47,942 nt of DNA from Acutalibacteraceae bacterium (GTDB lineage: Bacteria > Bacillota > Clostridia > Oscillospirales > Acutalibacteraceae), in the NCBI GenBank assembly GCA_045587825.1, contig JAZNCY010000343.1:1-47942 (forward strand), read 5' to 3'. Position numbers and translations under genes: made by a program. The notes below the pieces were generated by a model, which saw nothing but the letters and a program-made list of their open reading frames with translations, was not told the origin of the DNA and ran no database searches. Positions 22,667 to 27,090 of this stretch are shown here, piece by piece (the first letter of the stretch is position 1; every line of letters begins with the position of its first letter).

Positions 22667-23128
22667 TTAAATTCCCGCCTTTTTCTCTCTTAAATTTTTA
22701 AAAAAACTTGTTAAAATTTCGCTACATTCGGTCTCTAAAATGCCACTCTCAAAATTAGGTTTGTGGTTAAATTCTAATTGAAACAAATTAACAACCGAAC
22801 CACAAGCGCCGTTTTTGTAGTCACTTGCACCGAAATATACGTTTTTGATTCTCGAATTTATAATAGCACCTGCACACATAGGGCACGGCTCTAATGTGAC
22901 ATATAAATCACACTTGAAAAGTCGCCAGCCACCTAAATTTTTACAGGCATTATTTATTGCCTCAATTTCAGCGTGGCAAAGTGCATTTTTTTCTGTTTCA
23001 CGTCTGTTTCTGCCTGTGCCAACGATTTTGCCATCACAAACAACAACTGCACCAACGGGAACTTCGCCTTCACTTGCTGATATTTCAGCAAGAAGAAGCG
23101 CCTCCTTCATAAAATCCTCGTGAGTCAT
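22667..23128 (-). CDS. tadA: tRNA-specific adenosine deaminase TadA
   Basis: CHAEIEAI and PCPMCAGA zinc-binding motifs. Confidence 0.94.
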   Translation of the reverse strand: MTHEDFMKEALLLAEISASEGEVPVGAVVVCDGKIVGTGRNRRETEKNALCHAEIEAINNACKNLGGWRLFKCDLYVTLEPCPMCAGAIINSRIKNVYFGASDYKNGACGSVVNLFQLEFNHKPNFESGILETECSEILTSFFKNLREKKAGI

Positions 23129-24252
23129 TACACTGCAACTCCCGAACCAAATGAAATCATTGAAATTGCCTGAATTAAAAATACTATAATTGCAATTATC
23201 ATTGCTGGTGCAAAAATGAATTTTGAAATTTTTTGCTTTAATGTGTATTCTTCCAAACCATTTTTAGAAATAATTCTATTGAATTCAGCTTTATATTTGC
23301 TTATATAAATAAGTAACGCTACAAAACCGAGACCTGCTAATGCAAGACAAACAAAGCTGTAAGCTGTATCTGCAGTTTCTTCATCTGTAAAATAAAGAAT
23401 TGTATAATAACAACAAGAAAGTCCATTTACAATAGCGTGAATTATAACGCCAGTCCAGATACTATCAGTTGCAATTACTGCATAGCCTAAAAACAATCCG
23501 CAGAGAATTGCAAAAGGAATTTGTGATGGAGTTCCGTGGAAAACACCAAAAACAATTGCTGAACAGATTATCGCAAACAAGTTGCCGTATTTTCTTAAAG
23601 GTTGCATTACAACGTTTCTCATTGCAAATTCTTCAACAAGAGGCGGTATAATAGCTGTACCGATAAACAATGCAATTATATCTATAACAGAATTTACCTG
23701 TGGTTCATCACCAGAAGAAAATGTGAAGCCAAAGCCCTCAAAGAATGTCTGAATAAAGCCTGTAACATACATTGAGGCAAGGCAACCTAAAACAGAAAGG
23801 AATATAATAGAAACTGTTTTTAAATTCGCTTTAGGTGCAGAATATGAGCAAACGGGCAAATCAGGTGTTTTATAAACTATTTTTTTTGCTATAAAGAACG
23901 GAATGCCTACGGTAAGTAATGAGTAAAAAATACCTACACTTGATGAAAAGGTTCCGTTTGAATAATACAAATCAATAAGTCCGAACGCTTCAAGTATTGC
24001 ACTAAAAAACATACTCGCAACTAAAAAGCCTAACATAGCAAGTGCAAATATTTTTGCAAAACGTCTTATTTCATTCTTCTGCTCACGAAGCTTTAAAAAT
24101 TTTTGCTGGCTTATATAGTACGCCTGCGGATTATTCTGGTAAACATACGGGTTGAATTGCCCCTGTGGTGCTTGATTGAAATTCGGATATTGATTAAAGC
24201 TCTGTTGCTGATTATGAAGCTCATATCTATTATTGTTCTGGTTATAATCCAT
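23128..24252 (-). CDS. CPBP-family intramembrane metalloprotease with a Q/N-rich N-terminal region
   Basis: EEFAMRN and FGVFHG motifs of the CAAX/Abi protease family. Polytopic. The first ~45 residues are dominated by Q, N, Y and P. Confidence 0.82.
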   Translation of the reverse strand: MDYNQNNNRYELHNQQQSFNQYPNFNQAPQGQFNPYVYQNNPQAYYISQQKFLKLREQKNEIRRFAKIFALAMLGFLVASMFFSAILEAFGLIDLYYSNGTFSSSVGIFYSLLTVGIPFFIAKKIVYKTPDLPVCSYSAPKANLKTVSIIFLSVLGCLASMYVTGFIQTFFEGFGFTFSSGDEPQVNSVIDIIALFIGTAIIPPLVEEFAMRNVVMQPLRKYGNLFAIICSAIVFGVFHGTPSQIPFAILCGLFLGYAVIATDSIWTGVIIHAIVNGLSCCYYTILYFTDEETADTAYSFVCLALAGLGFVALLIYISKYKAEFNRIISKNGLEEYTLKQKISKFIFAPAMIIAIIVFLIQAISMISFGSGVAV

Positions 24253-24292
24253 TTTTCATTCTCCAAAAAATTTTAATTATCTAAATTATAAC

Positions 24293-24490
24293 GATTATAG
24301 TTAGTCGAAACAGCGTAATTTTACGCTGTTTCGATACCAAATCATATATTTGGTATCGAATTTTCTTCGAAAATTCGACTATAATCCTTTCAATAACTGT
24401 AATGCAAAATTGTATTTATGAAAAACAATTTTGCTGAAAGCCGAAAAATCGGCTTTTGCGAAACGCAACTGCGTTTCGACTAATTACAGT
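24293..24490 (-). ncRNA. Unclassified, highly structured non-coding element: six perfect hairpins in two three-hairpin junction domains. Could be a leader RNA of the CPBP-tadA-luxS operon or a MITE-like DNA element; strand uncertain
   Basis: Closing helices 24293-24300/24379-24386 and 24396-24403/24483-24490. Hairpins H1-H6 are described in the findings. A minus-strand promoter lies immediately upstream. No match to any RNA family I recognise. Confidence 0.35.
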
Positions 24491-24491
24491 C

Positions 24492-24519
24492 ATTATAACA
24501 CATTACATAAAAATATCAA
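24492..24519 (-). promoter_or_regulatory. Candidate strong sigma-A promoter reading into the hairpin array and the CPBP-tadA-luxS operon
   Basis: Minus strand TTGATA (24514-24519), 16 nt, TATAAT (24492-24497), with an upstream TGT extension. Confidence 0.5.
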
Positions 24520-24562: not shown

Positions 24563-24591
24563 TTGAATATATCGTTAAAACATTGTATAAT
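24563..24591 (+). promoter_or_regulatory. Candidate sigma-A promoter of zapA-dut
   Basis: TTGAAT (24563-24568), 17 nt, TG-extended TATAAT (24586-24591), about 40 nt upstream of the zapA ATG. Confidence 0.6.
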
Positions 24592-24987: not shown

Positions 24988-25431
24988 ATGAGTACATTAA
25001 AAATAAAAAAATTACACGAAAAGGCAGTTATACCACAAAGAGCTACCTCTGGTAGTGCAGGTATGGACCTTTATGCTGTTTTAGATGAACCAATAACATT
25101 AAAGCAAGGCGAAACTGCACTTATTCCTACTGGAATTGCTATCGCTCTTGAAAGTCCTTCTGAAGCGGCTTTTATTTTCCCAAGAAGCGGTCTTTCTATA
25201 AAACACGGTATAGGACTTTTAAATTCTGTTGGTGTTATAGATAGTGACTACCGTGGAGAAATTAAAGTAGGCGTTATAAATCAGATAGATAAAGAATACA
25301 CTATTGAGCCAAACGAAAGAATTGCTCAGATGGTAATTATGCCTGTAAGTCTTCCTGAGATTATCGAGGTCGATGAATTAGACGAAACAGAGCGTGGTGC
25401 AGGTGGATTTGGCTCAACAAACAGATTTTAA
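24988..25431 (+). CDS. dut: dUTP diphosphatase
   Basis: Motifs AGMDLYA, PRSG, GVIDSDYRGE and a C-terminal RGAGGFGST. Confidence 0.95.
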   Translation: MSTLKIKKLHEKAVIPQRATSGSAGMDLYAVLDEPITLKQGETALIPTGIAIALESPSEAAFIFPRSGLSIKHGIGLLNSVGVIDSDYRGEIKVGVINQIDKEYTIEPNERIAQMVIMPVSLPEIIEVDELDETERGAGGFGSTNRF

Positions 25432-25434
25432 TTT

Positions 25435-25710
25435 AGGGTGAAAGAAGTTATCCGAACCTGCCTAAAAGCGAGTATTTTTAAGTCTTTTCGGCGTTTCGGT
25501 CTTGCAAGGCGACAGCCTTCCTTCACCCTCAACACCAAAAATCCAATAAAAACCTTTCGCTTTGTAGGTCGAAGATTTTTTATAGAACGGATTTATGGTC
25601 AATCAAGGCAAAAACGGAGCGAATCCTTTACGGATTTGCGAGTATTTTAACGAAGAGTGAACGGAAATCCGTCTATAAAAAACACGGTTCGGATAATTCC
25701 TTTCACCCCC
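25435..25710 (+). ncRNA. Unclassified structured element between dut and mnmE, bounded by 23-bp imperfect terminal inverted repeats. Candidate mnmE leader RNA or MITE-like element
   Basis: 25436-25458 pairs with 25686-25708 (21 Watson-Crick pairs, 1 G-U, 1 mismatch). Alternative pairing 25435-25447 with 25517-25529. 18-bp helix 25576-25594/25665-25682. G-U pairs favour the plus strand. Confidence 0.35.
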
Positions 25711-25725
25711 ATTGGAGATGTAATT

Positions 25726-27090
25726 TTGTCAACAATATCAGCAATAGTAACACCACAAACCGCCGCAGGTATTGGCATTGTAAGACTTTCTGGTGAAGAT
25801 GCCATTAAAATTGCAGACAAGGTTTTTAAGGGTGTATCAGGCAAAAAAATAGAAGAAAAAAACGGCTACACAGCACTTTTTGGTCACGTGTATGATGGCG
25901 ATGACGTTATTGACGAAGCAGTTGCACTTCTTTTCAGAGCACCAAAAAGCTATACTGGTGAGGATGTTGTAGAATTCAGTTGCCACGGCGGTCTTTATAT
26001 ACTTTCACGTGTTTTAAGGGCTACATTTAACGCTGGTGCAGTTCCTGCAGAGCCAGGTGAATATACAAAAAGAGCGTTTTTAAATGGTAAAATGGATTTA
26101 TCTGAAGCAGAGGCAGTTATGTCACTTATTTCTGCTACTGGTGAAGATGCACGTGCAGCAACGCTCAACGCTTTAGATGGTAATTTAAGCAGAGAAATAA
26201 CAGAATGCCGTGATTCTCTTGCAAGAACAGCAGCATTTTTAGCAGCTTGGGTAGATTACCCTGACGAAGAAATTCCAGAAATCAGTAACGAAGAAATGAT
26301 TTCTTCATTTTCTGATGTTTTGAGAAGATTAGAAACACTTTTAGATGGCTTTGATGCAGGTCAGGCGATTTTAGAAGGTATTGACACAGCAATTGTCGGC
26401 AGACCAAACGTTGGTAAGAGCACGCTTTTAAATGCACTCACTGGCAGAAACAGAGCAATAGTTACTTCAGTTGCCGGTACTACCCGTGACGTTTTAGAAG
26501 AAACTGTAAGACTTGGCAACATCACTTTAAGACTTGCTGACACGGCTGGTATCCGTACTGAAACCGATGATGAAATTGAAAAAATCGGTGTAGAAAGAGC
26601 AAAAGAGCGTTTCGAAAGAGCTGGTCTTGTATTTATGGTGCTTGATGGTGGCGAAAAGATTTCAGAAGATGACAAAGAGCTTTTAAAGCTTTGCAAGGAT
26701 AAACGTAGCATTGTTATTGTTAATAAAAGTGACTTGAACAGAGCATTTTCTGTTGATGAAATAAAAGATTATGCTGAAAATATAGTAGAAATTTCAGCCA
26801 AAGAAAATGATGGTATTGATAAATTAAAGCAGATTGTAGAAAGTGTTGTTGGTACTGATAACTTTAACCCATCTGCTCCACTTTTGACTACTGAAAGACA
26901 AAGAGCTTGTGTCTCAAAAGCAGTTGAAAATTTAAGAGAAGCATTAAACGGCTTAGAAATCGGCATTACAACGGATGCTATAAACGTTTCAGTTGACTGT
27001 GCTATTGAAGAGCTTTCTGTTTTAACAGGTGAAAAAGCAACAGAAACAGTCGTAAACGAAGTATTTAAAAACTTCTGTGTAGGTAAATAA
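25726..27090 (+). CDS. mnmE: tRNA modification GTPase MnmE (TrmE)
   Basis: N-terminal TISAIVTP..GIGIVRLSG, G1 motif GRPNVGKSTLLN, C-terminal FCVGK. TTG start at 25726 lies 8 nt after GGAG; the ORF-track start at 25657 falls in the structured leader. Confidence 0.93.
   Translation: MSTISAIVTPQTAAGIGIVRLSGEDAIKIADKVFKGVSGKKIEEKNGYTALFGHVYDGDDVIDEAVALLFRAPKSYTGEDVVEFSCHGGLYILSRVLRATFNAGAVPAEPGEYTKRAFLNGKMDLSEAEAVMSLISATGEDARAATLNALDGNLSREITECRDSLARTAAFLAAWVDYPDEEIPEISNEEMISSFSDVLRRLETLLDGFDAGQAILEGIDTAIVGRPNVGKSTLLNALTGRNRAIVTSVAGTTRDVLEETVRLGNITLRLADTAGIRTETDDEIEKIGVERAKERFERAGLVFMVLDGGEKISEDDKELLKLCKDKRSIVIVNKSDLNRAFSVDEIKDYAENIVEISAKENDGIDKLKQIVESVVGTDNFNPSAPLLTTERQRACVSKAVENLREALNGLEIGITTDAINVSVDCAIEELSVLTGEKATETVVNEVFKNFCVGK

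Follow-up and report, generated by a model that had tools for sequence, protein, structure and literature searches.

Whether the spacer between dut and mnmE carries a regulatory RNA or a piece of mobile DNA is the question raised by the 47,942-nt stretch of Acutalibacteraceae DNA analyzed here (the window). The original prediction favored the former, describing a leader for mnmE in which one 5′ strand would choose between a distal and a proximal partner, and offered a MITE-like insertion as the alternative. The genes beside the element were assigned by Pfam to ZapA, dUTPase, and MnmE, and all features below are given on the plus strand, the strand of dut and mnmE. The stop codon of dut (TAA) occupies 25429–25431, and the Shine-Dalgarno sequence and start codon of mnmE lie within 25714–25728, with TTG at 25726 as the most likely start, 8 nt past the GGAG at 25714–25717. 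A TTG rather than an ATG start, with the same ribosome binding site, is also present in three related loci (L001, L013, and L106).

Between the two genes lies an element of 273 bp (25436–25708), which runs from GGGTGAAAG to CTTTCACCC and is oriented like dut and mnmE. It has 51 full-length homologues, and the homology among the copies ends precisely with GGGTGAAA on the left and with TTTCACCC on the right. Each end is a terminal inverted repeat of 23 nt, the left one (25436–25458) differing at two positions from the family consensus GGGTGAAATGAGTTATCCGAACC, and the right one (25686–25708) having GGGTGAAAGGAATTATCCGAACC as its reverse complement. As predicted, the two arms are 91% complementary, forming 21 Watson-Crick pairs, one G-T pair, and one A-C pair, and in no shuffle of the window did the 23-mer match twice. 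Only 5 nt separate the right arm from the GGAG, and the insertion leaves both the Shine-Dalgarno sequence and the start codon untouched and, in the predicted fold, unpaired.

The internal structure that had been described was recovered as well, at the coordinates given. A hairpin is present at about 25460–25492 (helix columns 24–34/47–58), the direct repeat GCGAGTATTTT occurs at 25468 and 25638, and the long helix was found as 25576–25604/25655–25682 within a 3′ hairpin domain (25576–25682) that holds compensatory substitutions separating two subfamilies. The 8-bp hairpin with its 5-nt loop (25619–25639), followed by GAGTATTTTA, is conserved in the family, where its pair 188/204 occurs as UG, GU, and CG, and it looks like a weak terminator. 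The 5′ strand (25432–25447) does have an alternative partner at 25517–25532, to which 14 of 16 positions pair; this proximal partner repeats, inside the element, the motif of the right end (CTTCCTTCACCCTCAA), whose core TTC(A/G)CCCTC is conserved across the family. The density of structure is equally real, the plus strand folding with z = −7.5 relative to shuffles. The statement that the spacer has no credible ORF needs amending, as a 70-aa ORF with a GTG start occupies 25438–25650; the frame of the longest ORF differs between copies, hence no ORF is conserved.

The strong predicted structure, the two possible partners for 25436–25447, and the position directly upstream of the mnmE ribosome binding site would all suit a dedicated cis-regulatory mnmE leader, that is, a riboswitch or attenuator switching its 5′ strand between the distal and the proximal partner. 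Against such a leader, no Rfam family (raiA, HEARO, OLE, or any other) matched at the gathering score over the whole window, and permissive thresholds gave only chance-level matches (E above 0.9) in 25300–25850. Together with the dispersal, the allelic states, and the strand symmetry described in the following sections, this makes the leader very improbable. Literature searches returned nothing relevant on an mnmE leader or on the element family.

Copies, target site, and alleles

A 22-nt right-end pattern was scanned against one genome per species, with an exact match to the 22-mer required, and this returned 104 loci in 39 species-representative MAGs of Acutalibacteraceae, Oscillospiraceae, and Clostridia. 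The named hosts of these MAGs are yak, sheep, goat, cattle, and water deer. Individual MAGs contain one to nine loci, which is a lower bound given the exact 22-mer and the fragmentation of the MAGs. Copies were typed by BLAST of the 282-bp insert against the fetched loci, which identified 51 full-length copies of 271–273 bp, 85–97% identical, lying in both orientations beside unrelated genes. Deletion derivatives of 42, 103, 153, and 203 bp were found alongside them, as were two copies of 478 bp that contain a nested insertion. An alignment of 52 copies has a mean column identity of 93%, with conserved ends and two subfamilies. The same sequence, with the same ends, thus recurs in either orientation at unrelated loci, dozens of them in all, which is hard to reconcile with a leader dedicated to mnmE.

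The genome nearest to the window in this set (JAZSIE, 92% identity over mnmE) carries six element loci; away from dut-mnmE it has five full-length copies, 95–97% identical to the window copy, and a half copy in another MAG (L014) is 100% identical and adjoins unrelated DNA. The window itself (48 kb) holds a single copy, and we infer the copy number in the source genome from these relatives. The element breaks short-read assemblies: many MAG contigs end about 137–140 nt inside it (L006, L009, L014, L016, L048, L051, L077, L078, and others), as expected where an assembly graph with k = 141 breaks at a repeat, and copy numbers in MAGs are therefore underestimated. No match to the element was found in plasmid, phage, and viral-contig collections.

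TA dinucleotides adjoin the copies. Of 48 copies, 42 have a TA just outside the left end, 44 have one just outside the right end, and 40 have both; T is preferred ahead of the TA and A behind it (a T-TA-A context), and an end with its flanking TA reads TA-GGGTGAAA(T/G)GA(G/A)TTATCCGAACC. One orthologous pair of alleles captures the insertion itself. The filled allele L099 reads ...gaaattacaTA[element]TAatataacag..., and the orthologous empty allele L030 reads ...gaaattacaTAatataacag... (in short form ...attacaTAatataac...), so that a single TA in the empty allele corresponds to two in the filled one. The element therefore inserts at TA and duplicates it. Further comparisons of filled and empty alleles are provided by L086 and L082 against L072. 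Such insertion polymorphisms at the strain level could serve as markers.

At another orthologous site, a full 271-bp element in L033 (850–1120) corresponds to a 42-nt stub in L057 (6855–6900). The stub retains both tips, reading TA GGGTGAAATGAATTATCCGAACCTGCCTAATTCTTTCACC A, and a stub of the same size is present in L054. These 42-nt stubs may be products of internal deletion or abortive excision.

A sequence that is multicopy and dispersed, flanked by TA, represented by filled and empty alleles, and devoid of conserved coding capacity establishes a mobile non-coding element. The segment at 25436–25708 is one copy of this repeat, a MITE, and not a dedicated mnmE regulatory RNA; the element has all the defining features of a bacterial MITE that could be tested, and the alternative offered at the outset, a MITE-like insertion bounded by 23-bp inverted repeats, is strongly supported. 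We are highly confident that the family is a non-autonomous, TA-targeting transposon of 271–273 bp with 23-bp inverted repeats that uses a T-TA-A context and duplicates the TA. The mean column identity and the very stable folds would also suit a family of small structured RNA genes, each transcribed on its own and repeated by chance. That reading is scarcely credible, as the TA duplications and the filled and empty alleles denote transposition, promoter-like sites in the copies are not in excess (5 found against 4.1 expected), orientation relative to the neighboring genes is mixed, and Rfam offers no match. Among uncultured Acutalibacteraceae and Oscillospiraceae of the gut, the element represents a widespread MITE family that, as far as searched, has not been described.

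Allelic history of the dut-mnmE junction

The relatives of the window differ at this junction. In the outgroup L106 (about 85% identical), the spacer reads ...cagattttaaattataattTAttggagatg; it is empty and the TA target is present. The flanks of the window copy reconstruct to ...ttttaattTA joined to ttggag. The left copy of the target duplication (25434–25435) is intact and can be read directly. On the right (25709–25711), where TA followed by TTGGAG would be expected, the window has CCA and L013 has CA, and the window, L013, and the empty L106 site (...aattTAttggag), set side by side, suggest a TA that has decayed. The missing clean right TA in the window copy is one point that speaks against the MITE reading.

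L013 (92% identical) has the decayed right junction CA in common with the window and retains only 65 nt at the right end of the element; the first 212 nt were deleted between two ATTTTAA repeats, one at the end of dut and the other at 25644 (L013 1–80 compared with window 25425–25650). L001 (93–97% identical) has no element, and 7 nt of spacer are missing as well, so that it cannot serve as an exact empty site, and the target is modeled better by L106. In L001 (1060–1090), the stop codon of dut runs into the Shine-Dalgarno sequence of mnmE (TAGGAG) and the genes are only 12 nt apart, an arrangement that suggests translational coupling, which the insertion would have abolished in the window. 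The GGAG and TTG region of mnmE is identical in L001, L013, and L106.

Comparison of mnmE upstream regions thus found the element absent in L001 and L106 and reduced to a 65-nt remnant in L013. Since the insertion is common to two lineages that are about 8% diverged (the window and L013) and is lost or eroded elsewhere, it must be old. The absence of most or all of the element in close relatives, 85–93% identical, argues against an indispensable regulator of mnmE, and, to judge from these alleles, the element is dispensable at dut-mnmE. Many copies with the same inverted repeats, combined with empty sites in relatives, were what the original prediction regarded as the mark of a mobile element; both were found, and by this standard the regulatory reading is refuted.

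The following history is consistent with these alleles. The dut-mnmE spacer of an ancestor of the window lineage would have been short (...TAATT-TA-TTGGAG), and the element would have entered it at the TA. A DDE transposase of the IS630/Tc1-mariner type, acting in trans and binding to the inverted repeats, would have moved it there, and the tight spacing of the two genes seen in L001 would have been lost through this insertion. The window copy would since have aged and decayed, its right TA mutating and two substitutions arising at its left end. No strong terminator was found between dut and mnmE, so the element is probably transcribed inside the operon; a site resembling a promoter precedes zapA at 24563–24591. 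Co-transcription with zapA-dut-mnmE would then produce a long stem-loop that separates dut from mnmE and leaves the mnmE ribosome binding site free. The dense secondary structure would stem from the palindromic build of the transposon, with no regulatory role specific to mnmE.

RNA-level and DNA-level structure

It had been claimed that G-U pairs are tolerated only on the plus strand. The folding energies contradict this, as in the window copy it is the minus strand that yields the more stable fold (−111 kcal/mol vs. −98 kcal/mol for the plus strand), and across the 52 copies the mean energies are −102.4 kcal/mol for the plus strand and −103.7 kcal/mol for the minus strand, with consensus fold energies of −63.8 and −65.3, respectively. 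The predictions for the two strands share 44 pairs, and among these the variants divide evenly, 12 being G-T and 12 A-C. A plus-strand excess of G-T was discarded as an artefact of the strand folded, since it was reversed with the minus-strand structure and was gone in the shared pairs. The structure therefore has no strand preference, contrary to what a leader for mnmE would call for.

The predicted switch is not supported. Two competing partners do exist in the window, but the proximal one is the family-wide internal motif, a copy of the GGGTGAA complement found at the ends, and in most copies the pairing extends over about 7–10 bp. In the family consensus, TTC(A/G)CCCTC and the left tip form 7 contiguous bp plus two more, a pairing that is unused in the consensus fold. 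The 12 of 13 matches of the window copy arise from two substitutions private to its left end (AAATGAG to AAAGAAG). With this, a false lead is removed, there being no evidence for a new mnmE riboswitch; the element can pass for a structured RNA in motif screens.

A few compensatory changes keep the 3′ hairpin paired. Both sides have changed while remaining paired in five to seven pairs, nearly all in this hairpin, for example columns 149/243 (CG in 31 copies, UA in 18) and 153/240 (GC in 29, AU in 19). The alignment contains 75 cells changed on both sides, a number reached in none of 500 shuffles; the underlying events are few and mostly divide the two subfamilies. The compensatory changes imply that something maintains the 3′ hairpin. 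Templated correction of quasi-palindromes can yield paired changes without any RNA function, and the cause of the maintenance could be either such correction or a function at the RNA level.

A MITE copy that has acquired a local RNA role, as an RNase III site, a stabilizer of the mRNA, or a partial terminator that changes the dut:mnmE ratio, is worth weighing, though we consider it unlikely. The insertion has been tolerated for long, being present in two lineages about 8% diverged, the element contains a conserved small hairpin with a U-rich tract, and compensatory changes keep the 3′ hairpin paired. With orthologous insertions counted, a Shine-Dalgarno sequence and start codon occur no more than 60 nt from the right end in 16 of 44 copies, compared with 6 of 49 for the left end. 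The flanking genes are co-oriented with the element by 51 to 28. In about a third of the full-length copies (L008, L012, L032, L073, L095, L101, L104, and others), the right end is 10–45 nt upstream of a Shine-Dalgarno sequence and start on the same strand. However, when orthologous duplicates are removed by eye, the trend shrinks to about 14 to 6 (p about 0.1 by our own estimate) and is not significant, so that no claim is based on these orientation counts. Moreover, three quarters of the element has been lost in L013 and all of it in L001, and the structure lacks strand asymmetry. RNase III processing has been proposed for transcribed NEMIS hairpins (PMC2229807), which provides a precedent for the first of these roles.

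A broader version of this idea would treat the whole family as a mobile RNA-structure module, in which pairing is kept by selection and the right end is retained preferentially just upstream of ribosome binding sites, tuning downstream processing, stability, or translational coupling, and here uncoupling mnmE from dut. We regard it as a rather improbable extension. For the MITE itself, TA targeting close to ribosome binding sites may sometimes alter the expression of operons.

Mobilization and relation to known repeats

Judged from the TA duplication and the inverted repeats, the two features that bear on it, the mobilizer of this MITE is probably a transposase of the IS630/Tc1-mariner type. 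The 105 loci fetched, about 0.75 Mb of flanking DNA, yielded no transposase gene whose ends match. Pairs of TA-GGGTGAAA...TTTCACCC-TA spaced 0.7–3 kb apart within the loci were chance pairs only, and clustering of the ORFs of at least 220 aa from the loci revealed no multicopy proteins. ORFs beside solo or truncated ends (L045, L058, L057, L049, and L060) were considered as candidates and rejected, since they encode transporters, a phosphorylase, and other housekeeping-type proteins and no transposases.

Stowaway-type MITEs, which are related to Tc1/mariner elements, duplicate a TA, have terminal inverted repeats and a length of 100–300 bp, and are mobilized in trans; they are eukaryotic, and any relation to the present element would be one of mechanism only. 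Among bacterial systems, members of the IS630 family target TA, and in ISY100 and its relatives the transposase binds the terminal inverted repeats (PMC2170065). These elements are autonomous and encode their transposase, whereas the present element encodes nothing conserved.

The closest parallels in design are RUP and Correia/NEMIS, both of them shorter than the element and without sequence relationship to it. RUP is likewise a non-coding repeat of a Gram-positive host, with terminal inverted repeats, insertion at TA, many intergenic copies, and stop codons in all frames, and it has been linked to IS630-Spn1 through the TA duplication and similar inverted repeats (PMC2229807). It differs in being 107 bp long, with short inverted repeats and ends that match a known IS630-family element, whereas the present element has 273 bp, inverted repeats of 23 bp, no detectable sequence shared with the known collections searched, and no partner transposase found. 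The Correia (NEMIS) elements of Neisseria are comparable in having inverted repeats of about 24 bp, a TA next to each end, and long and short variants; their transcripts fold into long stem-loops, and they often lie beside genes (PMC2229807). In contrast, they are 107–155 bp long, proteobacterial, and equipped with an IHF site, and their RNase III processing was proposed from experiments.

The window contains a further repeat of 211 bp (24288–24498), located between a minus-strand ORF (23128–24252) and zapA. It is 87% identical to an insertion of about 205 bp that is nested in the element copies of L002 (1971–2185) and L017 (3759–3972), and it is flanked on both sides by ATAA in the window and in L002. 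This second repeat contains many hairpins, one of which, at 24330–24360, resembles a terminator, and it probably represents another MITE family.
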